Positions 4,181-43,205 of a stretch of DNA of 52,416 nt are shown one piece after another. Position 1 is the first letter of the stretch. The number at the start of each line of letters is the position of its first letter. The stretch is from a virus (lineage: Duplodnaviria > Heunggongvirae > Uroviricota > Caudoviricetes). Made by a program: the position numbers and the translations under genes. The DNA lies in the IMG/VR virus record IMGVR_UViG_2896589216_000005. One strand, 5' to 3'. The notes under the pieces were generated by a model. That model was not told the origin of the DNA and ran no database searches. It was given only the letters and a program-made list of their open reading frames with translations.

Positions 4181-4344
4181 TGCTGTTCTCCGATAATACC
4201 AAGTTCAAGAAGGGCAATTCTGGAAAGTATGGAATTATCATTGAGAAGATAAGGTTCATATTTTCTCATCTTAATGGCATCTTCCGTAAACTCCCGGTTA
4301 CTGAGCAGAACACCAATATCAAAACAACCGGTAATGACTCCAAC

Positions 4345-4722
4345 TTATTGATAGTGTTTTATGTTCAGATAATGCCCGATGACTTTGTCATGCAGCTCCA
4401 CCGATTTTGAGAACGACAGCGACTTCCGTCCCAGCCGTGCCAGGTGCTGCCTCAGATTCAGGTTATGCCGCTCAATTCGCTGCGTATATCGCTTGCTGAT
4501 TACGTGCAGCTTTCCCTTCAGGCGGGATTCATACAGTGGCCAGCCATCCGTCATCCATATCACCACGTCAAAGGGTGACAGCAAGCTCATAAGACGCCCC
4601 AGCGTCGCCATAGTGCGTTCACCGAATACGTGCGCAACAACCGTCTTCCGGAGCCTGTCATACGCGTAAAACAGCCAGCGCTGGCGCGATTTAGCCCCGA
4701 CGTATCCCCACTGTTCGTCCAT
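4345..4722 (-). CDS. insB: IS1 InsB (transposase frame, normally expressed as InsAB fusion by -1 frameshift)
   Basis: 125-aa ORF matching IS1 InsB. Confidence 0.9.
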
Positions 4723-4766
4723 TTCCGCGCAGACGATGACGTCACTGCCCGGCTGTATACGCGAGG

Positions 4767-5042
4767 TTACCGACTGCGGCCTGAGTTTTTTAAGTGACGT
4801 AAAATCGTGTTGAGGCTAACGCCCATAATGCGTGCAGTTGCCCGGCATCCAACGCCATTCATGGCCATATCAATAATTTTCTGGTGCGTACCGGGTTGAG
4901 AAGCGGTGTAAGTGAACTGCAGTTGCCATGTTTTACGGCAGTGAGAGCAGAGATAGCGCTGATGTCCGGCAGTGCTTTTGCCGTTACGCACCACCCCGTC
5001 AGTAGCTGAACAGGAGGGACAGCTGATAGAAACAGAAGCCAC
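4767..5042 (-). CDS. insA: IS1 InsA
   Basis: 91-aa ORF matching IS1 InsA (zinc-finger N-terminus CPSC...CSHC). Confidence 0.92.
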
Positions 5043-5315
5043 TGGAGCACCTCAAAAACACCATCATACACTAAATCAGTAAGTTGGCAGCATCACCAAA
5101 CAACCTTCAGACGTATTAACGTTTGGTAATAACGTTTCCATTATCGCGTCCTCAACAATGAATTTTGTGATGCGGTGCCTGGTGCCTCCAGGTGACGTTA
5201 ACCAGTTAACAATTAACGCCGGATACAGAGAATCCACCCATAACACTGTTTTTGGTTTTAACTGTTCTGCGTGCGCTCAGCCGCATTCACCACATCACAA
5301 AATTCACTTTAAAAA

Positions 5316-7649: not shown

Positions 7650-8661
7650 AAAGGTGAAAACCGGCAGTTCATCCAGTAAGTCTGTATTGACCTGGCTTGC
7701 TGATATGTGCGGTGCCGATTTGTGTGCATACCCGTCTGTATCTGCACTGGCAGAAGTAACGGAACTAAACAAAAAGACTGTGCAGGACAGCTTACGACAC
7801 CTGATGGAGATTGGGTTAATTGTTGATACCGGTGAGAGAAAAGGCAGAACAAAGCAAATTGTGGTGTACCGACTTATCGGTGTAGAAGAAAGTGTTGCCG
7901 AGCCTGAATACACCCAAAAACGGGAGTCTTTAAAGGTGGGTAAAATTGGTGCTGTTAGTAAAAACAGTACCGAAAATGGTTATGTTTCAGCACAAAACAG
8001 ACCCAAAAACGGAACTCTTAGCTGCATGGAAAATAACCAAAGACACCCAAATTTTCCATCAAAGACACCCAAAAACGGATCACGGAACCCAAAGGAACCC
8101 AAAGATCTAAACCCCACACATAACGCACGCGAGAGTGCTCCGACCAGTGAGCAGGAAGTTTTGTCGTTACAGGCAGCACCCCTTGTATTCCTGGATGGCC
8201 TGAGCGAACCCATCGGAAAATATCCGATGACCGATAGCTGGTATCCGTCACGGGATTTTCGACGACGGGCTGCGTTGTGGGGGATGGCTTTGCCGGAGAC
8301 AGAATTTACACCTGCTGAACTTGCCGCCTTCCGGGACTACTGGGCAGCGGAGGGGAAAGTGTTTACGCAGATTCAGTGGGAGCAGAAATTCGCCCGTCAC
8401 GTAAATCACGTCAGGGCGCAGGTTAAACCAGTCAGCAAGGGGGTAAACCATGCAGCAGCACCAGGTGGCACCGCATCACGGGCAGTTCAGGAAATTCGGG
8501 CAGCACGTGAGCAGTGGGAACGTGAAAACGGATTTATCAGCGACGGAAACGGTCTGGAAGCTGTGGGAACTCATGGGGGAGGTTTATTCGAACCGCTGGA
8601 CCCAGAAGAACGGGGCCGCACCTTCGAAGCTCTGGATTGCACAGATTGGCGCGATGACTGA
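7621..8661 (+). CDS. Replication initiation protein (O-like, N-terminal wHTH)
   Basis: ATG at 7621 (MSIDALRWAKK...); position before the P-like gene; stop overlaps the P start (ATGACTGA). Confidence 0.72.
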   Translation: MSIDALRWAKKVKTGSSSSKSVLTWLADMCGADLCAYPSVSALAEVTELNKKTVQDSLRHLMEIGLIVDTGERKGRTKQIVVYRLIGVEESVAEPEYTQKRESLKVGKIGAVSKNSTENGYVSAQNRPKNGTLSCMENNQRHPNFPSKTPKNGSRNPKEPKDLNPTHNARESAPTSEQEVLSLQAAPLVFLDGLSEPIGKYPMTDSWYPSRDFRRRAALWGMALPETEFTPAELAAFRDYWAAEGKVFTQIQWEQKFARHVNHVRAQVKPVSKGVNHAAAPGGTASRAVQEIRAAREQWERENGFISDGNGLEAVGTHGGGLFEPLDPEERGRTFEALDCTDWRDD

Positions 8662-9115
8662 GCAGCAAATCCGACAGGTCTGCCGCCAGTGCATGGACCG
8701 CTGCCGGGCGGGTGAAACATGGCCTCCGGACCTGGCTGAGTTTGTGGCGCTGATTTCAGAAAGCGGGGCCAATCCATTTGGCCTGACGGTGGATGCTGTG
8801 ATGGAGGAGTACCGCCGCTGGCGTGATGAGTCCTGGCGATATGACGGAAGCGACAAATATCCGTGGCCTCAGCCTGTGCTGTACCACATCTGCCTCGAAA
8901 TGCGTACCAGAGGGATTGAGCGCCAGATGACGCAGGGTGAGTTAAAACGACTTGCGGAACGGCAACTGACGAAATGGGCAAAGCATGTTGGTAACGGGAT
9001 GAGTGTTCCGCCAGTGCGACGACAACTGGAAGGGGCGAAACACCCGCAAGGGCCAACGCCAATTGAACGGCTGAAACAGGAATACGAACGCCGGAAGGCA
9101 GCTGGTTTTATTTGA
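8450..9115 (+). CDS. P: Replication protein P-like (helicase loader); start uncertain (8450, 8573 or 8654)
   Basis: C-terminal two thirds align with lambda P (YPW...TQGELKRLAERQLTKWAKH); ATG at 8654 is coupled to the O-like stop. Confidence 0.7.
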   Translation: MQQHQVAPHHGQFRKFGQHVSSGNVKTDLSATETVWKLWELMGEVYSNRWTQKNGAAPSKLWIAQIGAMTEQQIRQVCRQCMDRCRAGETWPPDLAEFVALISESGANPFGLTVDAVMEEYRRWRDESWRYDGSDKYPWPQPVLYHICLEMRTRGIERQMTQGELKRLAERQLTKWAKHVGNGMSVPPVRRQLEGAKHPQGPTPIERLKQEYERRKAAGFI

Positions 9116-9130
9116 ATCTGAGAAACGATT

Positions 9131-9919
9131 TTGTCGGAGGAAATTTTAATGGAAACCGTATTTGACGCACTGAAAGCAATGGGAAAAGCCACATCGGTAG
9201 AACTGGCCGCGCGACTTGATATCAGTCGTGAAGAGGTTCTCAACGAGCTGTGGGAACTCAAAAGAAATGGCGTCGTTGATAAAACTGGTCACACCTGGTT
9301 TCTGGCTGGCGAAGGTGAATCCCGGGTAACCGAAGAGCGGCCAGTAAAATCTGAAGCACAGGATATGCTGACCGGGGAGGTCGAACAAAAAGTTACCGCA
9401 GACATGATGATTGAGTTTATCGGTCAGGATGGTGCTAAAACGTGTGAGGAACTGGCGGGTAAGTTCGGCGTCAGTACTCGCAAGGTTGCCTCCACGCTGG
9501 CGGTGGTAACCGCAACGGGGCGGCTGGCACGCGTTAATCAGAACGGTAAATTTCGTTACTGCATGCCGGGCGATAATTTACCAGCAGAGCCGAAAGCCGC
9601 GCTGGTAACGGAAAGTGATGGTAAGGCCTTTCCTCAGCCAGCAGGTGCTGCGTTACCAGTCCGGGAAGCCGCAACACAGGAAGAAATTAAAACAGAAACT
9701 GTGGCGGACATTGTGCAGCCGTTGCCATCGTTTACCGAAACGCAAGCAGATGAGCTGATTTTTCCGTCCCTTCGCAGGGCAAACCTGGCGCTGCGCAGGG
9801 CGAAAAGTGATGTTCAGAAGTGGGAGCGAGTCTGCGCCGCGCTGCGGGAGCTGAACAAGCACCGGGATATTGTTCGACAGATTACTGATTCTTCCCGCCG
9901 TGTTGTATCGGAAAAGTGA
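9131..9919 (+). CDS. Hypothetical phage protein with N-terminal winged-helix (DUF1627-like), 262 aa
   Basis: ORF; N-terminal wHTH-like segment ([28 protein letters not shown]). Confidence 0.55.
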
Positions 9920-10327
9920 TTGCCGGAGGCGCTTATGGCAAAAGTATTTACACCAGAAGAGCGGGAAGAAGTGAAGGCGCGCATTGTGGAATTCGTGCGC
10001 CTGAGCGGACGAGAAACTTTTCGACAACTGGCAGATAAAACGGGTGTCAGTAAGACCGCTATTCGTCGTTTATCTGGTGCGCTTGCGGCCAGTGGTGATG
10101 TCTGGCTCTCTGGTTGCGGGGTATTTCCATCAGAGCAGGCGTATCGCGTATGGCGTAAGACACCGGAGAAGGCTGCTGACCCGACACTGATTCGAAAGTT
10201 ACCTGACGGAGAAATACGTCGTTACAACAGACGGCAGAACATAATTTGTCGTGAGTGCCGCCAGAGCGAAGTTATGCAGCGTGTGCTGGCGTTCTATCGG
10301 GGAAACTTTCAGGAGGTGATGGAGTGA
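9920..10327 (+). CDS. Hypothetical phage protein, 135 aa
   Basis: ORF tightly packed in the early operon. Confidence 0.5.
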   Translation: MPEALMAKVFTPEEREEVKARIVEFVRLSGRETFRQLADKTGVSKTAIRRLSGALAASGDVWLSGCGVFPSEQAYRVWRKTPEKAADPTLIRKLPDGEIRRYNRRQNIICRECRQSEVMQRVLAFYRGNFQEVME

Positions 10328-12926: not shown

Positions 12927-13094
12927 ATGACCACTATTACCAAAGAACGTATTGAATTGTTCATTAAAAACCCGCTTGAAAACGGGCTTACCCGTGGTGA
13001 ACAAATGGAACTGGCACGGATTGCGCTGGCATCGCTGGAAGCAGAGCCGGTTGTGTTCTGGTTTGAAAAATATCAAGAAGGGGCTACGGCATGA
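12927..13094 (+). CDS. Small hypothetical protein, 55 aa
   Basis: ATG at 12927 preceded by AAGGAG SD; stop overlaps the next start (ATGA). Confidence 0.4.
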
Positions 13095-13293
13095 CGACTT
13101 TTACCAGAGAGCAGTTAATAGCTCACGCAGAGGAGACTATTGAAGCACAGAGACTGTGCATACCGGGCACAATCGACCATGACATCATCCGCACATATAA
13201 GATAGACTGGCCCCCTGAATCTCCAGACAACCAGTATCACTTAAATAAGTGATAGTCTTAATACTAGTTTTTAGACTAGTCATTGGAGTACAG

Positions 13294-13659
13294 ATGATTG
13301 ATGTCTTAGGGCCGGAGAAACGCAGACGGCGTACCACACAGGAAAAGATCGCAATTGTTCAGCAGAGCTTTGAACCGGGGATGACGGTCTCCCTCGTTGC
13401 CCGGCAACATGGTGTAGCAGCCAGCCAGTTATTTCTCTGGCGTAAGCAATACCAGGAAGGAAGTCTTACTGCTGTGGCCGCCGGAGAACAGGTTGTTCCT
13501 GCCTCTGAACTTGCTGCCGCCATGAAGCAGATTAAAGAACTCCAGCGCCTGCTCGGCAAGAAAACGATGGAAAATGAACTCCTCAAAGAAGCCGTTGAAT
13601 ATGGACGGGCAAAAAAGTGGATAGCGCACGCGCCCTTATTGCCCGGGGATGGGGAGTAA
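13294..13659 (+). CDS. insC: IS2 InsC (orfA)
   Basis: 121-aa ORF from [14 protein letters not shown]6G slippery site before stop. Confidence 0.9.
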
Positions 13660-14522
13660 GCTTAGTCAGCCGTTGTCTCCGGGTGTCGCGTGCGCAGTTG
13701 CACGTCATTCTCAGACGAACCGATGACTGGATGGATGGCCGCCGCAGTCGTCACACTGATGATACGGATGTGCTTCTCCGTATACACCATGTTATCGGAG
13801 AGCTGCCCACGTATGGTTATCGTCGGGTATGGGCGCTGCTTCGCAGACAGGCAGAACTTGATGGTATGCCTGCGATCAATGCCAAACGTGTTTACCGGAT
13901 CATGCGCCAGAATGCGCTGTTGCTTGAGCGAAAACCTGCTGTACCACCATCGAAACGGGCACATACAGGCAGAGTGGCCGTGAAAGAAAGCAATCAGCGA
14001 TGGTGCTCTGACGGGTTCGAGTTCTGCTGTGATAACGGAGAGAGACTGCGTGTCACGTTCGCGCTGGACTGCTGTGATCGTGAGGCACTGCACTGGGCGG
14101 TGACTACCGGCGGCTTCAACAGTGAAACAGTACAGGACGTCATGCTGGGAGCGGTGGAACGCCGCTTCGGCAACGATCTTCCGTCGTCTCCAGTGGAGTG
14201 GCTGACGGATAATGGTTCATGCTACCGGGCTAATGAAACACGCCAGTTCGCCCGGATGTTGGGACTTGAACCGAAGAACACGGCGGTGCGGAGTCCGGAG
14301 AGTAACGGAATAGCAGAGAGCTTCGTGAAAACGATAAAGCGTGACTACATCAGTATCATGCCCAAACCAGACGGGTTAACGGCAGCAAAGAACCTTGCAG
14401 AGGCGTTCGAGCATTATAACGAATGGCATCCGCATAGTGCGCTGGGTTATCGCTCGCCACGGGAATATCTGCGGCAGCGGGCTTGTAATGGGTTAAGTGA
14501 TAACAGATGTCTGGAAATATAG
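13617..14522 (+). CDS. insD: IS2 InsD (orfB transposase, DDE)
   Basis: 301-aa ORF in the -1 frame relative to insC. Confidence 0.9.
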
Positions 14523-14766
14523 GGGCAAATCCAAAGATGGATATTGCTGTTCTGGAAATCGCACTGGTATCGCTGGCAGCAGAGCCAGCCGGTAAATTGC
14601 ATGAATACAAACCAGTGGGATATCAGCGTCTGGTCGATGAGTTAACCATGCTGGTAAAGCAGTTAACCTGGCAACTGAGGAAAGCGAAGCCAGACTGCAA
14701 ATTACCGGATAAGGCGATGAGTTATCTGGAGCGGAACGGACTGATAAGCGTGGAGGATATTTTACG

Positions 14767-14850
14767 ATGACCTGGCCTGAAGCATTAACAACGGTAGGAA
14801 TTGCGATGGCGGTGGCGCTGGTGGTGTATTCGATTTGCCGCTGGGGATAA
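14767..14850 (+). CDS. Possible 27-aa hydrophobic peptide
   Basis: ATG overlaps the upstream stop (ATGA); product MTWPEALTTVGIAMAVALVVYSICRWG; too short to be confident. Confidence 0.25.
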   Translation: MTWPEALTTVGIAMAVALVVYSICRWG

Positions 14851-15061
14851 AAACGGTTTGCGGGAAAAGGAGAGTTAAGTAGAATTGCAGCGGGTGCTTG
14901 AGGCTATCTGTCTCAGGCATGAACACCAAAAGGCAGATAGAGAAAAGCCCCAGTTAACATTACGCGTCCGGCAAGACGCTTAACATTAATCTGAGGCCAT
15001 ATCTATGCTCTACACACGTAGGTTAGCCTCTTACGTGCCGAAAGGCAAGGAGAAGCAGGCT

Positions 15062-15217
15062 ATGAAGCAGCAAAAGGCGATGCTAATCGCCCTGATCGTC
15101 ATCTGTTTAACCGTCATTGTGACGGCACTGGTAACGAGGAAAGACCTCTGCGAGGTACGAATCCGAACCGGCCAGACGGAGGTCGCTGTCTTCACAGCTT
15201 ACGAACCTGAGGAGTAA
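15062..15217 (+). CDS. hok: Hok/Gef-family membrane toxin (51 aa)
   Basis: MKQQKAMLIALIVICLTVIVTALVTRKDLCEVRIRTGQTEVAVFTAYEPEE matches the Hok family signature (closest recalled member HokD/RelF). Confidence 0.8.
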   Translation: MKQQKAMLIALIVICLTVIVTALVTRKDLCEVRIRTGQTEVAVFTAYEPEE

Positions 15218-15285
15218 GAGACCCGGCGAGGGAGAAATCCCTCGCCACCTCTGATGTGGCAGGCATTCTCAACGCACCCGCACTT

Positions 15286-15318
15286 AACCCGCTTCGGCGG
15301 GTTTTTGTTTTTATTTTC
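15286..15318 (+). terminator. Rho-independent terminator after hok
   Basis: GC hairpin CCCGCTTCGGCGGG followed by T-run. Confidence 0.5.
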
Positions 15319-15433
15319 AACGCATTTGAAGTTCTGGACGGTGCCGGAATAGAATCAAAAATACTTAAGTAGCGCGCAGGGATAAGAGGGATGGTCCCTT
15401 AAAGGGGAGAGCTAATTATCCGGAAGGATTCTG

Positions 15434-15685
15434 ATGATGAACATCGAAGAGCTGCGTAAAATTTTTTGTGAAGATGGCCTCTATGCTGTGTGCGTTGAAA
15501 ATGGAAATATTGTTAGTCATTACCGCATTGTGTGTTTGCAAAAAAATGGGGCTGCGTTAATTAATTTTGTGGATGCCCGAGTGACGGACGGATTTATCTT
15601 GCGCGACGGTGAGTTTGTCACTTCATTACAGGTATTGAAAGAGATCGGAATAAAAGCTGGCTTTTCTGCTTTTTCAGAAGAATAA
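15434..15685 (+). CDS. Hypothetical protein, 83 aa (Rem-like by position and size)
   Basis: ORF between hok and the DUF968 gene, as rem is in Qin. Confidence 0.45.
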   Translation: MMNIEELRKIFCEDGLYAVCVENGNIVSHYRIVCLQKNGAALINFVDARVTDGFILRDGEFVTSLQVLKEIGIKAGFSAFSEE

Positions 15686-15751
15686 ACTCATCTACAATCT
15701 TGCGCGGGGCTGAACTCCCGCTGAGTAACACCGTGCCACCGGAGAAAACCG

Positions 15752-16030
15752 ATGGCACGCAACGCAAAATATTACAAACATGATAATTCGACCGTTCTTG
15801 CCCACACGCACGAGCGGTATTCTCACGCATTTAAGTCAGACTGGTACCAGCATCCCCCATGCACTGAAGAACAGGCCGAATGGCTCATTCAGTGTTACCG
15901 CAGGCGCGGATGCGAGGTTAAAAAAGCCCTTAGCCTCGACTACCGTCACTGGATAATCTCCGTCAGGCTTCCTTACTCCGAACGCCCACCGCGTCTGTCC
16001 CGCACATACCAGCAACGCATCTGGAGATAA
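15752..16030 (+). CDS. Hypothetical protein, 92 aa
   Basis: ORF ending 1 nt before the DUF968 gene start. Confidence 0.4.
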   Translation: MARNAKYYKHDNSTVLAHTHERYSHAFKSDWYQHPPCTEEQAEWLIQCYRRRGCEVKKALSLDYRHWIISVRLPYSERPPRLSRTYQQRIWR

Positions 16031-16031
16031 C

Positions 16032-17078
16032 GTGCGGGTATTACTTCGACCTGTTCTGGTACCGGAACTCGGGCTGGTGATCGTTAAGCCGGGCCGTGAA
16101 TCCATGCCGGTATTCCACAATACCCGGGTACTGGTGGAGCCGGAACCGAAAAGCATGCGTAATCTGCCGTCCGGGGTCGTTCCTGCCGTTCGCCAGCCGC
16201 TGGCGGAGGATAAATCATTACTGCCATTTTTCAGCGACGAACGAGTGATTCGTGCTGCTGGTGGCGCTGGCGCATTGTCTGACTGGTTACTGCGCCATGT
16301 TAAATCCTGCCAGTGGCCACACGGCGATTATCACCACAGTGAAACCGTCATTCACCGTTATGGTACCGGCGCAATGGTGTTGTGCTGGCACTGCGACAAC
16401 CAGCTGCGCGACCAGACCTCCGAATCACTCGGGCAACTTGCTCACCAAAACCTGTCTGCATGGATGATTGACGTCATACGCCATGCAATGAATGGCTCGC
16501 AGGAACGGGAATTATCGCTGGCTGAATTATCCTGGTGGGCGGTCCGCAATCAGGTGGCGGACGCGCTACCGGAAGCGGTATTACGTCGTTCGCTGGGGTT
16601 GCGTGCGGAAAAAATCCGCTCAATGTACCGTGAAAGCGACATCGTACCGGGAGAGCAGACCGCCACCAGCATACTGAAGCAGCGCACAAAAAATCTTGCG
16701 CCGCTGCCTCACGCCCACCAGCAAAACCCGCCACAGGAAGAGACGGTGGTCAGCATTGCCGTTGATCCTGAGTCTCCGGAATCTTTCATGAAACGACCTA
16801 AACGTCGCCGCTGGGTTAACGAGAAATACACACGCTGGGTGAAGACACAGCCGTGTGCGTGTTGTGGTAAGCCAGCCGACGATCCCCATCACCTGATTGG
16901 TCATGGTCAGGGCGGAATGGGGACAAAATCTCACGATATTTTCACGCTACCGCTGTGTCGGGAGCATCACAACGAGCTTCATGCGGATCCTCTGGCGTTC
17001 GAAGAAAAGCATGGTTCTCAGGTTGATTTAATTTTTCGTTTTCTTGATCACGCCTTTGCAACTGGCGTGCTTGGGTAA
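16032..17078 (+). CDS. ydfU: DUF968 (YdfU-like) protein with C-terminal HNH-like Cys/His motif
   Basis: 348-aa ORF; CACCGKPADDPHHLIGHGQGG...CREHHNELH; position between hok and Q as in Qin. Confidence 0.65.
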   Translation: MRVLLRPVLVPELGLVIVKPGRESMPVFHNTRVLVEPEPKSMRNLPSGVVPAVRQPLAEDKSLLPFFSDERVIRAAGGAGALSDWLLRHVKSCQWPHGDYHHSETVIHRYGTGAMVLCWHCDNQLRDQTSESLGQLAHQNLSAWMIDVIRHAMNGSQERELSLAELSWWAVRNQVADALPEAVLRRSLGLRAEKIRSMYRESDIVPGEQTATSILKQRTKNLAPLPHAHQQNPPQEETVVSIAVDPESPESFMKRPKRRRWVNEKYTRWVKTQPCACCGKPADDPHHLIGHGQGGMGTKSHDIFTLPLCREHHNELHADPLAFEEKHGSQVDLIFRFLDHAFATGVLG

Positions 17079-17090
17079 AAGAGGTGACTG

Positions 17091-17465
17091 ATGCTCATAG
17101 ATTTGGTTTTACCTTACCCGCCGACGGTGAACACTTACTGGCGACGCCGTGGCAGCACATATTTTATCTCGGAGGAGGGAAAGCGTTATCGCCGGGCTGT
17201 GGCGCTTATTGTTCGCCAGCAGCGGCTGAAATTAATCCTGTCCGGAAGGCTGGCGATAAAGGTGATTGCAGAGCCACCGGATAAGCGTCGTCGCGACCTG
17301 GACAATATCCTGAAAGCACCGCTGGATGCGCTGACGCATGCGGGAGTGTTAATGGACGATGAGCAGTTTGATGAAATCAATATCGTTCGTGGTCAGCCAG
17401 TATCTGGTGGACGTATGGGGGTGAAGATTTACCCCATAATGCATGAAGAGCAGGTCAAAAAATGA
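17091..17465 (+). CDS. rusA: RusA-family Holliday junction resolvase
   Basis: 124-aa ORF; YPPTVNTYWRRRG and RRRDLDN motifs of RusA. Confidence 0.85.
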   Translation: MLIDLVLPYPPTVNTYWRRRGSTYFISEEGKRYRRAVALIVRQQRLKLILSGRLAIKVIAEPPDKRRRDLDNILKAPLDALTHAGVLMDDEQFDEINIVRGQPVSGGRMGVKIYPIMHEEQVKK

Positions 17466-18283
17466 AACTGGAAGATTTACCGAAATACTACTCCCCAAAA
17501 TCCCCTGGCCTGACCGATGTATCGGCCTCAACGTCAAAAGATGCGCTGAGTATCACTGATGTGATGGCCGCGCAGGGCATGACACAGAATCGGGCTGAGA
17601 TGGGGTTTTCTGCGTTCCTGGGGAAAATGGGCATCAGTATGAATGACAGGGCGCGGGCAACAGAATTACTGGCAGATTATGCACTCAGTCGGTGCGATCG
17701 TGTGGCGGCGTTGAGAAAACTTCCGGCAGAAATAAAACCGGTAGTGATGCGCATTATGGCTTCGTACGCTTTTGAGGATTATGCCCGCAGCGCAGCGAGT
17801 AAAAAGCAGTGCCCTTGTTGCTATGGGGAAAAATTTATTGAAAGCGTAGTTTTTACAAACAAGGTCCAGTATCCGGATGGTAAGCCGCCGGTATGGGCAA
17901 AGTGTACGAAAGGTGTGTATCCGTCTTACTGGGAAGAATGGAAAAAAGTCAGGGAGGTGGTAAAAGTTGCCTGTCCGGAGTGTGGCGGAAAGGGTGAGGT
18001 TTCCACCGCCTGTAAGGATTGCCGTGGGCGTGGTGTCGCCATTCATCGTGAAGAGTCGGTAAAACGTGGTATGCCTGTTATCAGAGACTGCCAGCGTTGT
18101 GGTGGTCGTGGCTGTGAAAGACTACCATCAACGGAGGCATTTAATGCCATATGCAAAGTGACGAGTGCTATCACGCTTGATACGTGGAAAAAATCAGTGA
18201 AACGCTTTTACGATACGTTGGTGGTTCGGTTTGACATTGAAGAGGCATGGGCGGAGCGGCAGTTAAAGAGGGTAACGCGATAG
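17462..18283 (+). CDS. Q: Late-gene antiterminator Q (zinc-binding type)
   Basis: 273-aa ORF with multiple CxxC pairs, located just upstream of a promoter/terminator pair and the late genes. Confidence 0.78.
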   Translation: MKLEDLPKYYSPKSPGLTDVSASTSKDALSITDVMAAQGMTQNRAEMGFSAFLGKMGISMNDRARATELLADYALSRCDRVAALRKLPAEIKPVVMRIMASYAFEDYARSAASKKQCPCCYGEKFIESVVFTNKVQYPDGKPPVWAKCTKGVYPSYWEEWKKVREVVKVACPECGGKGEVSTACKDCRGRGVAIHREESVKRGMPVIRDCQRCGGRGCERLPSTEAFNAICKVTSAITLDTWKKSVKRFYDTLVVRFDIEEAWAERQLKRVTR

Positions 18284-18288
18284 TGTTG

Positions 18289-18322
18289 TTGATTTTTCCC
18301 GAATCTGTGGTAAATTTGCTCT
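18289..18322 (+). promoter_or_regulatory. Putative late promoter PR-prime and qut region
   Basis: TTGATT, 16-nt spacer, TAAATT just after the Q stop and before the terminator. Confidence 0.35.
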
Positions 18323-18365
18323 AACGATGGGCGTTTTATGCCTGACGTTAGAAGATTTTTTACAC

Positions 18366-18388
18366 CCCGCCGCCTGGCGGGTTTTTTA
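18366..18388 (+). terminator. tR-prime-like intrinsic terminator
   Basis: Hairpin CCCGCC-GCCT-GGCGGG followed by TTTTTT. Confidence 0.55.
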
Positions 18389-18509
18389 TGACTGAAATCG
18401 CGTCAGTACAGTAAACGCGCTGGTGGCGGTGAATACCTGTCTTTCAGCTTGCTGGCTTTTTCGACAAGAGTTATTGGTGTGTCACGTTAACCGGAAAAGG
18501 GAAAAAGAC

Positions 18510-18707
18510 ATGCTGAAACAGCAGGATATGACAGAAACCGCCAGAGTGGTGTTTAATGAATTAAGCGTTAACGACCCGGCGACAGTCGGGGAGATTGCGC
18601 AGAATACTTACCTTTCACGCGAACGCTGCCAGTTAATACTGACCCAGCTGGTTATGGCGGGTCTGGCAGACTATCAGTTCGGTTGTTACAGACGCCTTCC
18701 GCAGTGA
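18510..18707 (+). CDS. Small winged-helix-like protein, 65 aa
   Basis: ATG at 18510 after the terminator; ORF track extends it upstream to 18423. Confidence 0.4.
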   Translation: MLKQQDMTETARVVFNELSVNDPATVGEIAQNTYLSRERCQLILTQLVMAGLADYQFGCYRRLPQ

Positions 18708-18857
18708 AGGCTTTTTTATTTGTGGTAAATGGGCGGCTGGTGGGTGTTAGGGGCACCCACCAGCCATCTGCTCATGCGTTGGGTTCACAAGCAAACCTCA
18801 GGCCCACTGCTTTGCGCAAAAGCAGAATGAGCCTATCAGAGACAGGCTTAATGATCC

Positions 18858-19916
18858 ATGCTTAATACTGTAAAAATATCCAGTTGTGAGTTAATCAACG
18901 CCGACTGCCTGGAATTTATCTGGTCGTTACCCGAAAATTCTGTTGACCTGATAGTCACGGACCCGCCGTACTTTAAAGTGAAGCCTGAGGGCTGGGATAA
19001 CCAGTGGAAGGGCGACGATGATTACCTGAAGTGGCTGGACCAGTGTCTGGCGCAGTTCTGGCGGGTGCTGAAACCTGCCGGAAGTCTTTACCTGTTCTGT
19101 GGTCATCGCCTGGCATCTGATATCGAAATCATGATGCGTGAACGCTTCAGTGTGCTGAACCATATTATCTGGGCGAAGCCGTCCGGACGCTGGAACGGAT
19201 GCAACAAGGAAAGCCTGCGGGCGTATTTCCCCGCCACAGAGCGCATTCTGTTCGCGGAACATTATCAGGGGCCGCATCGTCCGAAAGATGCCGGGTATGC
19301 GGCGAAGGGCAGTGCACTGAAACAGCATGTGATGGCCCCGCTGATTTCTTACTTTCGTGATGCGCGCGCGGCCCTGGGGATAACGGCAAAACAGATTGCA
19401 GATGCCACAGGAAAGAAAAACATGGTGTCGCACTGGTTCAGTGCCAGTCAGTGGCAGCTACCGAACGAAAGCGATTATCTGAAATTACAGTCGCTGTTTG
19501 CCCGGGTGGCAGAAGAGAAACATCAGCGCGGTGAACTGGAAAAGCCCCACCACCAGCTGGTGGATACGTATACGTCACTGAACCGGCAGTATGTGGAGCT
19601 GCAGAGTGAATATAAGCATCTGCGGCGGTATTTTGGTGTGACGGCGCAGGTGCCGTACACGGATGTGTGGACACATAAACCGGTGCAGTTCTATCCCGGG
19701 AAACATCCGTGCGAAAAACCGGCAGAAATGCTGCAGCAGATAATCAGCGCAAGCAGTCGTCCGGGTGACCTGGTTGCAGATTTTTTTATGGACTCAGGTT
19801 CAACGGTAAAAGCGGCACTGGCGCTCGGGCGTCGTGCGATTGGCGTTGAGCTGGAGACCGGACGTTTTGAGCAGACGGTTCGGGAAGTACAGGATTTAGT
19901 CAGCCAGAACGGATGA
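18858..19916 (+). CDS. Orphan DNA methyltransferase (N6-adenine/N4-cytosine class, DPPY motif)
   Basis: 352-aa ORF; N-terminal DPPY catalytic motif and C-terminal SAM-binding motif; no nuclease partner nearby. Confidence 0.85.
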   Translation: MLNTVKISSCELINADCLEFIWSLPENSVDLIVTDPPYFKVKPEGWDNQWKGDDDYLKWLDQCLAQFWRVLKPAGSLYLFCGHRLASDIEIMMRERFSVLNHIIWAKPSGRWNGCNKESLRAYFPATERILFAEHYQGPHRPKDAGYAAKGSALKQHVMAPLISYFRDARAALGITAKQIADATGKKNMVSHWFSASQWQLPNESDYLKLQSLFARVAEEKHQRGELEKPHHQLVDTYTSLNRQYVELQSEYKHLRRYFGVTAQVPYTDVWTHKPVQFYPGKHPCEKPAEMLQQIISASSRPGDLVADFFMDSGSTVKAALALGRRAIGVELETGRFEQTVREVQDLVSQNG

Positions 19917-19956
19917 TATTGCAGAATTAATTACGCGTCGTTATTATGCGGCTCCC

Positions 19957-20032
19957 GGCCCTTTAGCTCAGTGGTGAGAGCGAGCGACTCATAATCGCCA
20001 GGTCGCTGGTTCAAATCCAGCAAGGGCCACCA
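19957..20032 (+). tRNA. ileZ: tRNA-Ile2 (anticodon CAU, lysidine type; ileZ-like)
   Basis: 76-nt cloverleaf by hand folding; anticodon loop CUCAUAA; near-identical to recalled ileX; encodes 3-prime CCA. Confidence 0.85.
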
Positions 20033-20039
20033 TCACATA

Positions 20040-20116
20040 CCGCCATTAGCTCATCGGGATAGAGCGCCAGCCTTCGAAGCTGGTTGCGCGGGGTTCGAGT
20101 TCTCGATGGCGGTCCA
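20040..20116 (+). tRNA. argO: tRNA-Arg (anticodon UCG)
   Basis: 77-nt cloverleaf by hand folding; anticodon loop CUUCGAA; T-loop TTCGAGT; encodes CCA. Confidence 0.78.
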
Positions 20117-20130
20117 TTTATCGGTATTCT

Positions 20131-20200
20131 GCGTTGTTAGCTCAGCCGGACAGAGCAATTGCCTTCTAAGCAGCTGTGGTTGCACTCCTGTTGTTTCTGG
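20131..20200 (+). pseudogene. Degenerate tRNA-Arg (UCU) remnant
   Basis: Intact acceptor 5-prime strand, D-arm and CUUCUAA loop, but no canonical T-arm or matching 3-prime acceptor strand. Confidence 0.4.
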
Positions 20201-20373
20201 TGGTGATGGTGGACTTCAGCAGCCGGATAATGTCGGTGCTGTCTGATGATGTTTTGGTGGCGGGTGTGGTGGTTGTTGCTTTCCCGTTGCTGAAAAAGAA
20301 AGCATCAGGCGATTAGCAGGGTATCAGTTACCCGTTGAAATTTTTAAATACCTCACAATTCCACAGCTTGATG

Positions 20374-20570
20374 ATTGTCTGGCTGCCGGAGAATTTGTTA
20401 AAAATTACATCGCATGGTGAATCCCCCTCAGCGGCGGGGCATCTGGCAAAGTGTATGATCCAGAGAACATGCAAATTCAGTAGACAGGCTGAATTTACCG
20501 GGAGGCACCTGGCACCATGCGACAGACAGAAATTAGGCTATACTTCAGCCCCTCTCCGGAGGGGCTTTTC
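20374..20570 (+). repeat. Structured direct-repeat unit A (about 200 bp) ending in an 8-bp GC hairpin plus T-run
   Basis: Shares conserved blocks with unit B; terminal hairpin AGCCCCTC-TCCG-GAGGGGCT followed by TTTTCT. Confidence 0.5.
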
Positions 20571-20842
20571 TGTGCAGGATGTGTCACAGTTTCCTGAATT
20601 CTGAGTACTGTCCTGTTACTCAGGGTGCTATATTTTCTGACGTGATGAAAGTCTGCCGGAAGGCGGAACGTATCGGAAATGACCCAGTAGAGAAAACGTT
20701 GACTCAGATACCGATGCTGAGTTACCGGGAAACCGGCATCACATGACCGCTATCCTTCCAGGCTCGCTCCGGCGGGCCTTTTTACTGCAGAAAACAGTTT
20801 TCCCGTAAAATGCTACGTTGCTCATAATTCAGGCTGGCGATT

Positions 20843-21035
20843 ATTGTCTGGCCAGCGGGAAGTTTGTTAAAAAATTTCGCATGGTGAATCCCCCTGTGCG
20901 GAGGGGCAATCAGCGAGTAGGTATATGGGATAATCGCGGATTCAGGTGCTGGTACTGAATTCACCGGGAGGCACCCGGCACCATGCAATGGCACATAGCG
21001 CCACTCTCCAGCCCCTCTCCGGAGGGGCTGTTTAT
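20843..21035 (+). repeat. Structured direct-repeat unit B
   Basis: Same block order as unit A, 469 bp downstream; identical terminal hairpin. Confidence 0.5.
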
Positions 21036-21064
21036 ATTGATTTTGTCAGATGTGAGTAAACTCC

Positions 21065-21400
21065 TTATGGACTTTGTTGTTTTAGTCCATAAGGACATAT
21101 TTGCAGAGTGCAACGGTTATTAAAGCATTCATTCAATACGTTATCTGTATTTGTAGGGCATTCCTGGCTGTTTTTGATTAAATTCCAGAATGTTTTATTG
21201 AATGGCACTACGTTGTAAATGGTTACAGGTAGCACTTTGTTATTGAGCATGATGCCTGTGTGAGTCAGTGTAAATATACTTTCAGGAGGTAAGAAAGCAT
21301 CCGATTGATACCAGATTATTAATTTTATTTTACTCCATATGACTGAAAAAGATATTCCGCATGATGGCTGGATAACTGTATCAATCACAATCCACTTCAT
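21065..21400 (-). CDS. Hypothetical protein in AT-rich island, 111 aa
   Basis: ORF with AGGAAA SD 4 nt before the ATG; low GC relative to flanks; the 3-prime end overlaps a hairpin, so the C-terminus is uncertain. Confidence 0.4.
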
Positions 21401-21659
21401 TTAGTTTCCTTGTTTATGTCTTGCTGGTGATGTTCTGAAAAGTATAAATGATATTTTTGATTGTAAACCATAGAGCAGAATTATTTTTCTGATGTTGTTT
21501 ATTGTTTATTTAAATGCATGGTGGTTTATATCTCGTCTTGTAGTTTATCCATGCATATCTGCTTGATGATGAGGTTTTTATTTAAGGTATGGTTTTGTTT
21601 TTTTCTGTATTACATGTCAGGTATTTTAAAGAATCATTTTTCAGATGGTGGAAAGAACC

Positions 21660-23516
21660 ATGGCATTTAAACACTATGATGTTGTCAGGGCGGCGTCGCC
21701 GTCAGATCTTGCGGAAAAGCTGACACATAAACTGAAAGAGGGCTGGCAGCCGTTTGGTAGTCCGGTGGCCATAACCCCTTATACCCTGATGCAGGCGATT
21801 GCAGCAGAAGGTGATGTGGTCGTCAGTGGTGCAACTGAGCCGGAGTGGTACTACGTCATCGTACTGGCCGGGCAATCCAATGCCATGGCTTACGGTGAAG
21901 GGCTTCCGCTTCCGGATTCTTACGATGCGCCCCACCCACGTATTAAGCAACTGGCCCGTCGCAACACAGTGACTCCCGGTGGTAAAGCATGCGCATTTAA
22001 CGACATCATTCCGGCAGACCACTGCCTGCATGATGTTCAGGATATGAGCGCACTGAATCATCCGAAGGCAGACCTGAGCAAAGGGCAGTACGGCTGTGTC
22101 GGCCAGGGCTTACATATTGCCAAAAAACTGCTTCCGTATATCCCGAATAACGCGGGGATCCTGCTGGTACCATGCTGTCGTGGTGGTTCGGCATTCACCC
22201 AGGGCGCGGAGGGGACATTCAGTGCGGACACGGGGGCCAGCCAGGATTCGGCACGCTGGGGTGTGGGTAAACCGTTATATCAGGACCTGATCGCACGCAC
22301 CAAAGCGGCATTACAGAAGAACCCGAAAAATGTGTTGCTGGCGGTGTGCTGGATGCAGGGCGAATTTGACATGAGCGCTGCCACCTACGCACAGCAACCG
22401 GACCTGTTCACGGCCATGCTGAAGCAGTTCCGTACTGACCTTTCCGGATTTAACGCGCAGTGCCATGGCGGCAGTGCTGCAGTTGTACCGTGGATTTGTG
22501 GCGACACGACGTATTACTGGAAAAACACATACGGCACACAGTATGACTCCGTCTACGGCGCGTACAAAAACAGGGAGAGCGACAACGTTTTCTTTGTGCC
22601 GTTCATGACCGACGGTAACGGCAACAACACGCCCACCAACTTACCGGCAGAAGACCCGGATATTGCTGATGCAGGTTATTACGGCGCGCAATCCCGTAGT
22701 AATGGTAATTGGGTATCGTCAAATCGTCCGACACATTTCAGTTCATGGGCGCGCAGGGGCATTATTTCGGATCGCCTGGCAACCGCTATTCTGAACGCAG
22801 TTGGTCGAACCAGCGCCTTCATCAGCGGTACCGCACCGGAGATTAAACCCTCGCCCGGCGGCGACACGCCATCGGGGCCGTCTGATGGTGACACATCCGT
22901 TCGTACAGTCTCCCTGCTGCCGACAGCCGGAGAGGCTGCTGCGCAGGGCTGGACCATCACCGGCGGCAGTGTTGCGCTGGAAGATGGTGTGTTTAAGGTT
23001 ACCAAGCAGAGCAATAAAACCTGGTCCCTGATGCATCCGGTGGATGACGCAGTCTCCCTGCTGACACGGGGTGGCAGACTGAGCTGTAAGTTTCGACTGT
23101 CAGGCGCACTGACCAACAACCAGTTCGGTCTGGGAATTTATCTGTATACCGATGTAGCGTTACCTGACGTCGTGGCGATGACCGGGACTGGTAACCCGTT
23201 CCTGATGTCGTTCTTCACCCAGACCACAGACGGCAAACTGAATCTGATGCATCACAAGAAAGCCGGAAACACAAAGTTGGGCGAGTTCGGGAATTACAGT
23301 AACGACTGGCAGACGCTGGAGCTGGTGTTCACCGCCGGCAGTGCCACGGTTACTCCGAAACTGAATGGAGTGGCTGGCCCGGCATTCCAGGTCATAAAAG
23401 ACAGTCTGACACTGGGGCTGAATGCGCTGACGCTGACGGATATTACCAAAAATGCAGCGTATGGCGTTGAGATAGAAAGTCTGGTGCTGGAGATAAATGC
23501 ACCGGCATCATCATAA
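21660..23516 (+). CDS. NanS-p-like sialate O-acetylesterase (DUF1737 + SGNH/SASA esterase)
   Basis: GQSNA esterase motif and N-terminal DUF1737-like segment; the position Stx-type phages use for this gene. Confidence 0.78.
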   Translation: MAFKHYDVVRAASPSDLAEKLTHKLKEGWQPFGSPVAITPYTLMQAIAAEGDVVVSGATEPEWYYVIVLAGQSNAMAYGEGLPLPDSYDAPHPRIKQLARRNTVTPGGKACAFNDIIPADHCLHDVQDMSALNHPKADLSKGQYGCVGQGLHIAKKLLPYIPNNAGILLVPCCRGGSAFTQGAEGTFSADTGASQDSARWGVGKPLYQDLIARTKAALQKNPKNVLLAVCWMQGEFDMSAATYAQQPDLFTAMLKQFRTDLSGFNAQCHGGSAAVVPWICGDTTYYWKNTYGTQYDSVYGAYKNRESDNVFFVPFMTDGNGNNTPTNLPAEDPDIADAGYYGAQSRSNGNWVSSNRPTHFSSWARRGIISDRLATAILNAVGRTSAFISGTAPEIKPSPGGDTPSGPSDGDTSVRTVSLLPTAGEAAAQGWTITGGSVALEDGVFKVTKQSNKTWSLMHPVDDAVSLLTRGGRLSCKFRLSGALTNNQFGLGIYLYTDVALPDVVAMTGTGNPFLMSFFTQTTDGKLNLMHHKKAGNTKLGEFGNYSNDWQTLELVFTAGSATVTPKLNGVAGPAFQVIKDSLTLGLNALTLTDITKNAAYGVEIESLVLEINAPASS

Positions 23517-23662
23517 AAAGTGAGCCAGTCAAATGGAAGGTATCGTTAAACTCACCGGTAGTGTCAGTGGGTAGACTGGCCCCCTGAATCTCCAGACAAC
23601 CAGTATCACTTAAATAAGTGATAGTCTTAATACTAGTTTTTAGACTAGTCATTGGAGTACAG

Positions 23663-24094
23663 ATGATTGATGTCTTAGGGCCGGAGAAACGCAGACGGCG
23701 TACCACACAGGAAAAGATCGCAATTGTTCAGCAGAGCTTTGAACCGGGGATGACGGTCTCCCTCGTTGCCCGGCAACATGGTGTAGCAGCCAGGCAGTTA
23801 TTTCTCTGGCGTAAGCAATACCAGGAAGGAAGTCTTACTGCTGTGGCCGCCGGAGAACAGGTTGTTCCTGCCTCTGAACTTGCTGCCGCCATGAAGCAGA
23901 TTAAAGAACTCCAGCGCCTGCTCGGCAAGAAAACGATGGAAAATGAACTCCTCAAAGAAGCCGTTGAATATGGACGGGCAAAAAAGTGGATAGCGCACGC
24001 GCCCTTATTGCCGGGGATGGGGAGTAAGCTTAGTCAGCCGTTGTCTCCGGGTGTCGCGTGCGCAGTTGCACGTCATTCTCAGACGAACCGATGA
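23663..24094 (+). CDS. insC: IS2 orfA (InsC) of copy 2, C-terminally altered
   Basis: ORF extended to 143 aa by the 1-bp deletion; S-to-R substitution relative to copy 1. Confidence 0.7.
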
Positions 24095-24890
24095 CTGGAT
24101 GGATGGCCGCCGCAGTCGTCACACTGATGATACGGATGTGCTTCTCCGTATACACCATGTTATCGGAGAGCTGCCCACGTATGGTTATCGTCGGGTATGG
24201 GCGCTGCTTCGCAGACAGGCAGAACTTGATGGTATGCCTGCGATCAATGCCAAACGTGTTTACCGGATCATGCGCCAGAATGCGCTGTTGCTTGAGCGAA
24301 AACCTGCTGTACCACCATCGAAACGGGCACATACAGGCAGAGTGGCCGTGAAAGAAAGCAATCAGCGATGGTGCTCTGACGGGTTCGAGTTCTGCTGTGA
24401 TAACGGAGAGAGACTGCGTGTCACGTTCGCGCTGGACTGCTGTGAGCGTGAGGCACTGCACTGGGCGGTGACTACCGGCGGCTTCAACAGTGAAACAGTA
24501 CAGGACGTCATGCTGGGAGCGGTGGAACGCCGCTTCGGCAACGATCTTCCGTCGTCTCCAGTGGAGTGGCTGACGGATAATGGTTCATGCTACCGGGCTA
24601 ATGAAACACGCCAGTTCGCCCGGATGTTGGGACTTGAACCGAAGAACACGGCGGTGCGGAGTCCGGAGAGTAACGGAATAGCAGAGAGCTTCGTGAAAAC
24701 GATAAAGCGTGACTACATCAGTATCATGCCCAAACCAGACGGGTTAACGGCAGCAAAGAACCTTGCAGAGGCGTTCGAGCATTATAACGAATGGCATCCG
24801 CATAGTGCGCTGGGTTATCGCTCGCCACGGGAATATCTGCGGCAGCGGGCTTGTAATGGGTTAAGTGATAACAGATGTCTGGAAATATAG
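24051..24890 (+). CDS. insD: IS2 orfB (InsD) of copy 2, N-terminally truncated (279 aa)
   Basis: Lacks the first 22 codons present in copy 1; D-to-E substitution. Confidence 0.7.
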
Positions 24891-25001
24891 GGGCAAATCC
24901 AGTGGGTCGTCTGAGATGCCTGCATGAGTTATCAGAGCCATCAGTACTTAACTGGTGGCTTTTTTTATTGTTGTCAGCTTCCGGATAACGGGAGACGGGG
25001 T

Positions 25002-25217
25002 ATGTACCAGATGGAAAAAATCACAACAGGTGTGTCATACACCACGTCAGCGGTGGGAACGGGCTACTGGTTCCTGCAGTTGCTGGACAGGGTTTCCCCG
25101 TCTCAGTGGGCGGCAATAGGCGTGCTGGGGAGTCTGCTGTTTGGGCTGCTGACATATCTGACTAACCTGTATTTCAAAATCAGAGAGGACCGTCGTAAGG
25201 CGGCACGGGGAGAGTAA
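25002..25217 (+). CDS. Class II holin/pinholin (EssD/EssQ-like), 71 aa, dual-start motif
   Basis: [10 protein letters not shown]... with two transmembrane segments; dual start Met1/Met4. Confidence 0.85.
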
Positions 25218-38062: not shown

Positions 38063-40525
38063 TCTTGTTATTGACCTGAGTCTGGATGCTGTCCGTTTCG
38101 ATGAGCAGATGAGCCGGGTAAGGCGTCATTTTTCATGTCTGGATACCGACGCCAGAAAAACCGCCAGTGCTGTTGAACAGGGCCTGAGCCGCCAGGCGCT
38201 GGCTGCACAAAAAGCCGGGATTTCCGTCGGGCAGTATAAAGCGGCCATGCGAACCCTGCCCGCACAGTTTACGGATATCGCCACGCAGCTTGCAGGTGGT
38301 CAGAATCCCTGGCTGATCCTGCTGCAACAGGGCGGTCAGGTGAAGGACTCCTTCGGCGGGATGATCCCCATGTTCAGGGGGCTTGCCGGTGCGATCACCC
38401 TGCCGATGGTCGGGGTCACCTCGCTGGCGGTGGCGACAGGTGCGCTGGTGTACGCCTGGTACCAGGGAGATTCCACGCTTTCAGCGTTTAATAAAACCCT
38501 GGTTCTTTCCGGTAATCAGTCCGGACTGACTGCCGATCGTATGCTGACTCTCTCAAGAGCCGGGCAGGCAGCAGGGCTGACGTTTAACCAGGCGAGAGAG
38601 TCACTGGCAGCCCTGGTGAATGCCGGTGTGCGTGGTGGTGAACAGTTTGATGCCATCAACCAGAGTGTCGCGCGTTTTGCGTCTGCATCCGGTGTGGAGG
38701 TGGATAAAGTCGCTGAAGCCTTCGGGAAGCTGACCACTGACCCGACGTCGGGACTGATGGCGATGGCGCGCCAGTTCCGTAACGTGACGGCAGAGCAGAT
38801 TGCGTATGTTGCACAGCTGCAGCGTTCCGGAGACGAGGCCGGGGCATTGCAGGCGGCGAACGATATCGCCACGAAAGGCTTTGATGAGCAGACCCGTCGC
38901 CTGAAAGAAAACATGGGAACACTGGAGACCTGGGCGGATAAAACAGGGAAGGCATTCAAATCGATGTGGGATGCCATTCTGGATATCGGTCGTCCTGAAT
39001 CCTCAGCGGATATGCTCGCCAGTGCGCAGAAGGCATTTGATGAGGCGGATAAAAAATGGCAGTGGTACCAGAGCCGGAGCCAGCGCCGGGGAAAGACCTC
39101 CTCTTTTCGTGCGAACCTTCAGGGGGCATGGGATGACCGGGAAAATGCCCGTCTGGGTCTGGCAGCGGCCACGCTGCAGTCGGATATGGAAAAAGCCGGT
39201 GAACTGGCGGCAAGGGACCGGGCTGAGCGTGAGGCGTCACAGCTGAAGTATACCGGAGAGGCGCAGAAGGCGTATGAGCGCCTGCAGACGCCGCTGGATA
39301 AATATACCGCCCGTCAGAAAGAGCTGAATAAGGCCCTGAAAGACGGAAAAATCCTGCAGGCGGATTACAACACGCTGATGGCGTCGGCAAAAAAGGATTA
39401 TGAATCGACGCTGAAAAAGCCGTCAGGTGTGAAGGTGTCTGCCGGTGAGCGCCAGGAAGACCGGGCGCATGCAGCCATGCTGGCGCTTGAAACCGAGCTC
39501 AGGACGCTGGAAAAACACAGCGGTGTGAATGAGAAAATCAGCCAGCAGCGCCGGGATTTATGGGAAGCGGAAAATCAGTATGTGGTCCTGAAAGAGGCCG
39601 CCACGAAACGGCAGTTATCTGAGCAGGAAAAATCCCTGCTGGCCCATGAGAAAGAAACGCTGGAGTACAAACGCCAGCTGGCTGAGCTGGGCGACAAGAT
39701 TGAACACCAGAAACGGCTGAATGAGCTGGCACAGCAGGCGGCGCGGTTTGAACAGCAGCAGAGCGCGAAGCAGGCGGCAATCAGCGCAAAAGCACGCGGA
39801 CTCACCGACCGTCAGGCGCAGCGGGAGTCGGAAGAGCAGCGCCTTCGTGAGGTGTACGGTGATAATCCGGCTGGGGCGAGTGGGCGGAAAGTGCGACGGA
39901 CAGTTTTTCGCAGGTTAAAAACGCGGCCACGCAGACCTTTGACGGTATTGTACAGAATATGGCAGCGATGCTGACCGGCAGCGAACAGAACTGGCGTGGT
40001 TTCACCCGTTCTGTGCTGTCCATGCTGACAGAGATTTTTCTGAAGCAGGCGATGGTGGGGATAGTCGGGAGTATCGGCAGCGCCATTGGCGGGGCTGTTG
40101 GTGGCGGCGCATCCGCGTCAGGCGGTACAGCCATTCAGGCTGCGGCGGCGAACTTCCATTTCGCGACCGGGGGATTTACGGGGACGGGGGGTAAATATGA
40201 ACCTGCGGGGATTGTTCATCGCGGGGAGTTTGTCTTCACGAAGGAGGCGACCAGCCGGATTGGCGTGGGAAATCTTTACCGGCTGATGCGCGGCTATGCC
40301 ACCGGCGGTTATGTCGGTGGCACCGGAAGTCCGGCGCAAATGCGGCGTTCAGAGGGTATCAGATTTGAGCAGAACAACAACGTGGTGATTCAGAACGACG
40401 GTACGAATGGTCTGCCAGGTCCACAGATGCTGAAGGCAGTGTATGACATGGCCCGCAAGGGTGCCCGTGATGAAATTCAGGCACAGATGCGCGATGGTGG
40501 TCTGTTCTCCGGAGGTGGACGATGA
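38043..40525 (+). pseudogene. H: Tape measure protein H, frameshifted (1-bp deletion in G-run at about 39874)
   Basis: Lambda gpH homology moves from ORF 38043-39974 to the frame of ORF 39959-40525 near CTGGGGCGAG. Confidence 0.85.
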
Positions 40526-42908: not shown

Positions 42909-43205
42909 ATGAACAAAACGATTTTATTCTGCACGATTATTGCCTTAACAGGATGTAAATCTTTGGATTACGTAAAATCCGGAAAACCTGTAATGGAAGG
43001 TAATTCATTAAAAAATATTGATGAATTGTCAGGCTGCATATCCAGACAATGGGCTGGTAATGGAACACCTATAACATCCCTTCCTATTGAGAATGGGGTA
43101 AGCCTTTTAGTTCCACAGGCTATGGGGGATATGATATTGTGCTTGATATCAAAAAAGCAGGAAATGGCAGTAGTTTTACTCTTTATGAACGTGTACCAGC
43201 ATTAA
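42909..43205 (+). CDS. Lipoprotein moron between tail genes I and J (possible Cor-like exclusion protein)
   Basis: Signal peptide MNKTILFCTIIALTGC with lipobox; AT-rich flanks; own terminator hairpin downstream; lambda has no gene here. Confidence 0.6.
   Translation: MNKTILFCTIIALTGCKSLDYVKSGKPVMEGNSLKNIDELSGCISRQWAGNGTPITSLPIENGVSLLVPQAMGDMILCLISKKQEMAVVLLFMNVYQH

Follow-up and report, generated by a model that had tools for sequence, protein, structure and literature searches.

Results

Two IS2 copies in a Shigella prophage

The virus record IMGVR_UViG_2896589216_000005 of IMG/VR, a member of the Caudoviricetes, is a stretch of 52,416 nucleotides that we refer to as the window. When the window was searched for repeats, two long direct repeats approximately 10,369 bp apart emerged, and global alignment fixed their limits at 13203-14533 (1331 bp, plus strand; copy 1) and 23572-24901 (1330 bp, plus strand; copy 2). 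Both are genuine copies of the insertion sequence (IS) IS2, and the segment that they enclose (14534-23571, plus strand) carries the antiterminator gene Q, two transfer RNA (tRNA) genes and an esterase gene. A preliminary description, made from the sequence alone, had recognized two same-orientation IS2 elements within these limits, in agreement with the repeat search and the alignment. It gave the bracketed block as 11.7 kb, a value that is correct for the outer span but includes both IS2 elements; the enclosed DNA measures only 9,038 bp.

CP026832.1, a PacBio sequence of Shigella dysenteriae 14 ATCC 49346 (PMC10132075), matches the window at 100% identity over two segments (4507-24770 and 23814-44842). 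Copy 1 is intact. Its orfA (13294-13659, plus strand) encodes 121 amino acids with an HTH_Tnp_1 domain, and its orfB (13617-14522, plus strand) encodes 301 amino acids with HTH_21, rve and rve_3 domains. At the A6G slip site (13611-13617, plus strand; IS positions 409-415), a -1 frameshift is predicted to yield an OrfAB fusion of 409 amino acids that contains the DDE (rve) domain. The terminal inverted repeats are imperfect, with TAGACTGG... on the left (IRL) and ...CAAATCCA on the right (IRR); 31 of 42 positions align between them, with one gap, and the IRL departs from the published IS2 IRL by a single base (PMC3219604). The whole set of features, namely length, IRL and IRR, orfA and orfB, the A6G motif and 5-bp target duplications, is as published for IS2 (PMC3219604). 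Over its full length, copy 1 is 99.9% identical to Escherichia coli elements annotated as "IS3-like element IS2 family transposase", and 4,059 of 5,426 complete E. coli genomes, a collection that excludes Shigella, contain a match over at least 80% of its length. The window copies resemble IS2 as known from E. coli and Shigella (IS3 family) in length, inverted repeats, open reading frames (ORFs), A6G frameshift, rve domain and 5-bp duplications, and differ from the reference in nothing essential: a few single-nucleotide differences, a T lost beside the IRL of copy 1, and a probably artefactual loss in copy 2.

Exactly three differences separate the two copies in the global alignment, which are the two substitutions and the 1-bp deletion listed in the preliminary description. 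C at 13425 of copy 1 corresponds to G at 23794 of copy 2 and changes Ser to Arg in OrfA. T at 14078 corresponds to G at 24446 and changes Asp to Glu in OrfB, a change that we judged from reading the DDE motifs to be non-catalytic. The third difference is the C at 13642 of copy 1, which is absent from copy 2 after 24010 (CCC to CC, at IS2 position 440).

The two copies are separate insertions

Copy 2 is flanked on both sides by a perfect duplication of GTGGG (23567-23571 and 24902-24906), as previously described. It is intergenic, 55 nucleotides past the stop codon of the esterase gene and 100 nucleotides ahead of the holin start codon. Copy 1 lies inside a 114-amino-acid ORF (13091-13202 and 14538-14770, plus strand) whose frame reopens once the IS is removed and for which no Pfam family was found. 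The duplication AAGAT that the preliminary description assigned to copy 1 is present on the right (14534-14538), while the left flank in the window has only AAGA (13199-13202) and is thus one T short of AAGAT directly followed by TAGACTGG. That perfect left junction is kept in three relatives (the IMG/VR contig 2859827302_000005, PSST01000003.1 and CP026828.1). Because the T-less junction is common to at least seven independent assemblies, we take the missing T to be a real later loss rather than an error.

Both sites were also rebuilt without the IS. Empty site 1 is uninterrupted in approximately 157 complete E. coli genomes and 115 IMG/VR contigs. Empty site 2 (a 2-kb query from which the IS and one GTGGG were removed) is matched over at least 80% of the query by more than 1,000 E. 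coli records, and the site is unoccupied, at 99.5-99.8% identity, in all 40 of the matches listed. The different target duplications and the uninterrupted, IS-free empty sites establish that copies 1 and 2 are independent insertions, as the preliminary description had proposed.

Distribution of the insertions among relatives

Relatives were found through short ORFs that span the copy-1 junctions. Both insertions occur at identical sites in CP026807.1, UYIT01000009.1, CP176669.1 and CP026828.1, as well as in three IMG/VR contigs, one of which consists of just the block ending in IS2 edges. Between strains the prophage has diverged by approximately 0.05-0.3% while the IS2 pair persisted. GCA_001906425.1 has copy 1 and a clean, empty site 2. 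All four combinations of a perfect or T-less junction 1 with an occupied or empty site 2 are represented among the relatives, implying recombination or repeated change.

Among the 5,426 complete E. coli genomes, occupied-site searches found neither insertion. Species-representative genomes and metagenome contigs were scanned for the junctions as well, with no occupied junction among them. An exact search of IMG/VR for the left junction of copy 1 was empty because of a one-base difference in the relatives, which were recovered with a pattern that tolerated it. Four apparently occupied sites in E. coli (NCTC86, Ec-2844, DETEC-E223 and strain 127) were rejected as IS2 at other positions. The NCTC86 element (LR217818.1, 2479-3809) is an IS2-like sequence, 97.3% identical to IS2 with the duplication TCGAC, that sits in the same 114-amino-acid gene 24 bp upstream of the window site. 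It is present in three assemblies of NCTC86 and absent from two others (CP019778.1 and B-2207), indicating that stocks of this historic strain differ. In Ec-2844 the IS2 lies between iraM and the esterase gene, in DETEC-E223 in ydfR, and in strain 127 downstream of iss.

Two relatives show further rearrangement. In PSST01000003.1 (GCA_002968235.1), site 1 holds a compound structure (8304-10027) in which bases 1-393 of IS2 run straight into a complete IS2; this is consistent with insertion of IS2 into IS2 and then recombination of direct IS2 segments. A second IS2 in this contig (18736-20066) lies inside the holin gene with the duplication TACAC, and site 2 is empty. In CP026828.1 (1-8700), the left arm of the prophage has been replaced, up to the 55-amino-acid gene just before copy 1, by an integrase fragment, another IS3-family element, ompW and a further IS2, which shows IS-associated prophage decay in this lineage.

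The missing base in copy 2

The 1-bp loss in copy 2 falls at 24005-24016 (plus strand), where GCCCGGGG is read as GCCGGGG, 25 nucleotides 3' of the slip site. As read, OrfA of copy 2 has 143 amino acids with a new tail, and the frameshifted OrfAB ends after 121 amino acids, before the catalytic domain. This deletion is private to CP026832.1; the base is present in the site-2 copies of UYIT01000009.1, the IMG/VR contig 2850756110_000002 and CP176669.1. G at IS2 position 223 is common to all three of these copies, and G at position 876 to those of UYIT01000009.1 and 2850756110_000002. Both copy-2 substitutions are thus real, since the same bases occur in the site-2 copies of other assemblies.

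Comparison with a short-read twin contig (Logan ERR5984632) bears on this loss. Over 13,523 bp it has zero mismatches to the window, and the only differences are that the window is one base short at 31540 (CGGGGA) and at 32496 (CCGGGC), both in G/C runs. These losses split the portal gene into parts of 460 and 82 amino acids (530 when unbroken) and shorten the head protease gene from 490 to 260, and the extra base is present at both positions in all five relatives compared. A third private 1-bp loss in a G/C run, at 43123, is likewise missing from the relatives compared. To judge from these comparisons, all three are probably PacBio homopolymer errors in CP026832.1. In CP026823.1 and CP026825.1, two genomes of the same PacBio project, IS2 copies at three unrelated loci are one G short in the adjacent GGGG run, which yields the same 143-amino-acid OrfA variant; these losses could be either a recurrent assembly error of the project or a mutational hotspot.

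Assemblies retain the enclosed block

Recombination between direct repeats of 1.33 kb is textbook biology. Between the two IS2 copies it would take out 10,369 bp, with the loss of Q and the late promoter; in principle, a RecA-dependent deletion of 10.4 kb is possible. The junction that such a deletion would leave, the left flank of copy 1 joined to the right flank of copy 2, occurs in none of the 5,426 complete E. coli genomes, a result that is weakly informative because this collection holds neither insertion. In IMG/VR, the outer junctions never occur on a contig that lacks the inner ones. Eight long contigs contain the left junction of copy 1; the two listed run into hok, and the other six have mostly the same neighbouring genes. 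The block is kept in every assembly with both copies (at least five). Comparison of strains for loss of the block, which the preliminary description had suggested, thus uncovered no recombinant junction in assemblies and the block retained.

The enclosed block and the downstream genes

The preliminary description's list of genes between the copies, from hok to a NanS-p-like gene, agrees with our analysis. In order, these are hok (15062-15217), rem (15434-15685), a DUF968 gene (16032-17078), rusA (17091-17465), Q (17462-18283), an N6/N4 DNA methylase gene (18858-19916), tRNA(CAT) (19957-20032), tRNA-Arg(TCG) (20040-20116), an iraM/PmrD-like gene on the minus strand (21065-21400) and a SASA/NanS-p-like esterase gene (21660-23516; 618 amino acids). 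They are collinear with IS-free E. coli prophages at approximately 98.5-98.8% identity and are native to this phage type. Between the tRNA genes and the iraM-like gene lies a diverged pair of repeated units approximately 467 bp apart (20370-21032). Each unit ends in a GC-rich hairpin, CCCCTCTCCGGAGGGG, and an indel of approximately 270 bp at these units separates relatives, PSST01000003.1 among them.

Downstream of copy 2 are a terminator-like hairpin (24934-24962, plus strand) and a class II holin gene (25002-25217, plus strand), the first late gene 3' of the element, followed by ydfR, lysozyme and Rz genes and a lambda-type head and tail gene set. Copy 2 is therefore within the late operon, between Q with the late promoter and the lysis genes, and is oriented with late transcription. 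Late transcription modified by Q probably reads through it. A promoter scan around copy 2 found nothing, and a record look-up of an antisense ORF across its left junction found no entry.

Other damage and repeats in the prophage

A dicB-like gene, intact in UYIT01000009.1 (97 amino acids), is interrupted in the window by an IS1 (768 bp) at 4330-5097; the alignments overlap by 8 nucleotides at the junction. Among relatives IS1 also occurs elsewhere, between iraM and the esterase gene in CP026828.1 and, in the IMG/VR contig 2859827302_000005, around the start of the esterase gene at a point corresponding to approximately 21640 of the window. A 91-bp deletion at 39857-39873, with a 17-nucleotide alignment overlap at the breakpoint, splits the tape-measure gene (38043-40525) into parts of 643 and 188 amino acids, compared to 857 amino acids in relatives. 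This deletion is real, since the independent short-read twin contig has it too, and the prophage is probably already defective in its tail, apart from any effect of IS2. An ORF of 991 amino acids resembling a tail fibre contains three tandem 132-nucleotide units (48899-49294), the second and third 77% and 62% identical to the first, and near the end of the window there is a pair of 140-nucleotide repeats (50907/51956) separated by 1,049 bp.

Discussion

We consider it highly probable that the window contains two separate, inherited IS2 insertions in a lambda-like prophage located beside ompW in S. dysenteriae serotype 14 ATCC 49346. One IS2 entered a small gene of the early right region, and the other the spacer between the esterase and holin genes inside the late operon. 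Both insertions are older than the split of several related strains, in which they have been inherited as stable, passive scars.

Some observations weigh against parts of this interpretation. The combinations of junction and site, all four of which occur, favor neither order of the two insertions. Assemblies cannot show rare events in a subpopulation, such as low-frequency deletion or circles, and only approximately 10 informative assemblies exist. Over 4507-24770, the lost base of copy 2 is the only gap of the window relative to UYIT01000009.1 and CP176669.1, and CP026807.1 has no gap over the part of this segment that it covers, which stops short of copy 2. Errors are thus infrequent in this part of the assembly. 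The reading of the loss as an error rests on analogy rather than on reads, and a real recent mutation is possible.

The placement of two same-orientation IS copies around cargo genes recalls a composite transposon that came as one unit. However, the pair shares no outer target duplication: the left outer flank reads AAGA(T), the right one GTGGG, and either IS is bounded by a duplication of its own. The block is, moreover, collinear with its counterpart in IS-free prophages; it follows that the block did not arrive in this way. The junctions occur only in this prophage lineage, with no IS-cargo-IS unit in other contexts, and in one relative that has copy 1, site 2 is clean and empty. Arrival as one unit, to which we assign next to no probability, is refuted by these duplications and by the empty sites. 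We give equally little credence to the idea that the duplicate IS2 copies are an artefact of assembly. IS elements are hard to assemble, but this idea is refuted by the recurrence of all four junctions in several independent assemblies, including short-read contigs whose ends fall within the edges of IS2 at precisely these junctions. For the single missing base the balance is less one-sided. That the deletion is a real, recent inactivating mutation of this strain seems unlikely, though its being the sole gap over 4507-24770 would fit such a mutation, and the adjacent G-run losses in IS2 at three loci of two other genomes could mark a hotspot. Those losses, however, come from the same PacBio project (CP026823 and CP026825). 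Every other private indel of the window is the loss of a single base from a G/C run; two of these disrupt essential genes, for the portal and the protease, and neither is found in the zero-mismatch twin contig. In every other assembly of the site-2 copy the base is present. Because the deletion is private and is matched by other G/C-run losses in the window, the "defective copy" is, by this analogy, probably an assembly error, a homopolymer undercall for which we think the chances are good, and both IS2 copies are then probably intact. The preliminary description called copy 2 probably defective, a view that fits poorly with a deletion private to one PacBio assembly, and had named a read error, together with an absence of recombinant junctions in population data, as what would undo its proposal; relatives and the twin contig suggest that a read error is probably what occurred.

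That proposal, in which the IS2 pair is an active deletion and mobilization module and a truly defective copy 2 is moved in trans by copy 1 or another IS2, seems quite unlikely to us. In its favor, the two direct repeats of 1.33 kb are 99.8% identical, copy 2 as read gives a truncated OrfAB of 121 amino acids while both IS ends are intact, and the compound IS2 at site 1 of GCA_002968235.1 suggests that such recombination may occur in the lineage. Against it, a recombinant junction is found in none of the assemblies examined, the block is retained wherever both copies are present, and the deletion is private to one PacBio assembly, like that assembly's other homopolymer undercalls. IS3-family transposases act preferentially in cis (PMC6350997), and rescue of copy 2 in trans is therefore expected to be inefficient. 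A circle formed by homologous recombination, furthermore, would have no replication origin and no abutted IS ends. In Burkholderia thailandensis, one IS2-like element together with the intervening DNA forms a "megacircle" (Ocasio and Cotter 2019, PMC6350997), demonstrated by polymerase chain reaction, read coverage and genetics, with 210 kb of cargo between distant IS2-like elements; according to the authors, a circle from two distant IS2 elements was previously unreported (PMC6350997). The window resembles that system in having two direct IS2-type elements around cargo, but the evidence there is experimental, and the assemblies that contain the window pair show no circle. We regard it as very improbable that copy 1 and the 9-kb block with Q, the tRNA genes and the esterase gene form a transposase-dependent circle able to re-insert beside another IS2. 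If they did, a late-control module would travel from one prophage to another in Shigella genomes rich in IS2. Translocatable units of the IS26 type and classical composite transposons likewise have direct IS repeats flanking passenger genes, but they differ in transposase family and chemistry, and the window pair lacks a shared outer duplication and is seen in no other context.

Two inherited, passive IS2 insertions agree with what has been described for Shigella. Its chromosomes contain 229-348 IS copies, and five IS types, IS2 included, expanded in all species (PMC7373316). As in that account of IS expansion and prophage decay, several IS elements (IS1 and two IS2) occupy one prophage, and the relatives have strain-variable insertion patterns and neighbouring rearrangements; unlike there, IS-mediated deletion of this block was not observed.

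A practical caution follows from the assembly. Single-base losses in G/C runs of this PacBio sequence mimic inactivation of the IS2 transposase, the portal and the head protease, and "defective" calls made from sequence only merit checking against related assemblies or reads. For the biology of Shigella, a pair of IS2 elements in one prophage is expected, given that IS2 has expanded there, and is already known biology. Recombination of the pair would deprive the prophage of Q and the late promoter and lock it permanently.

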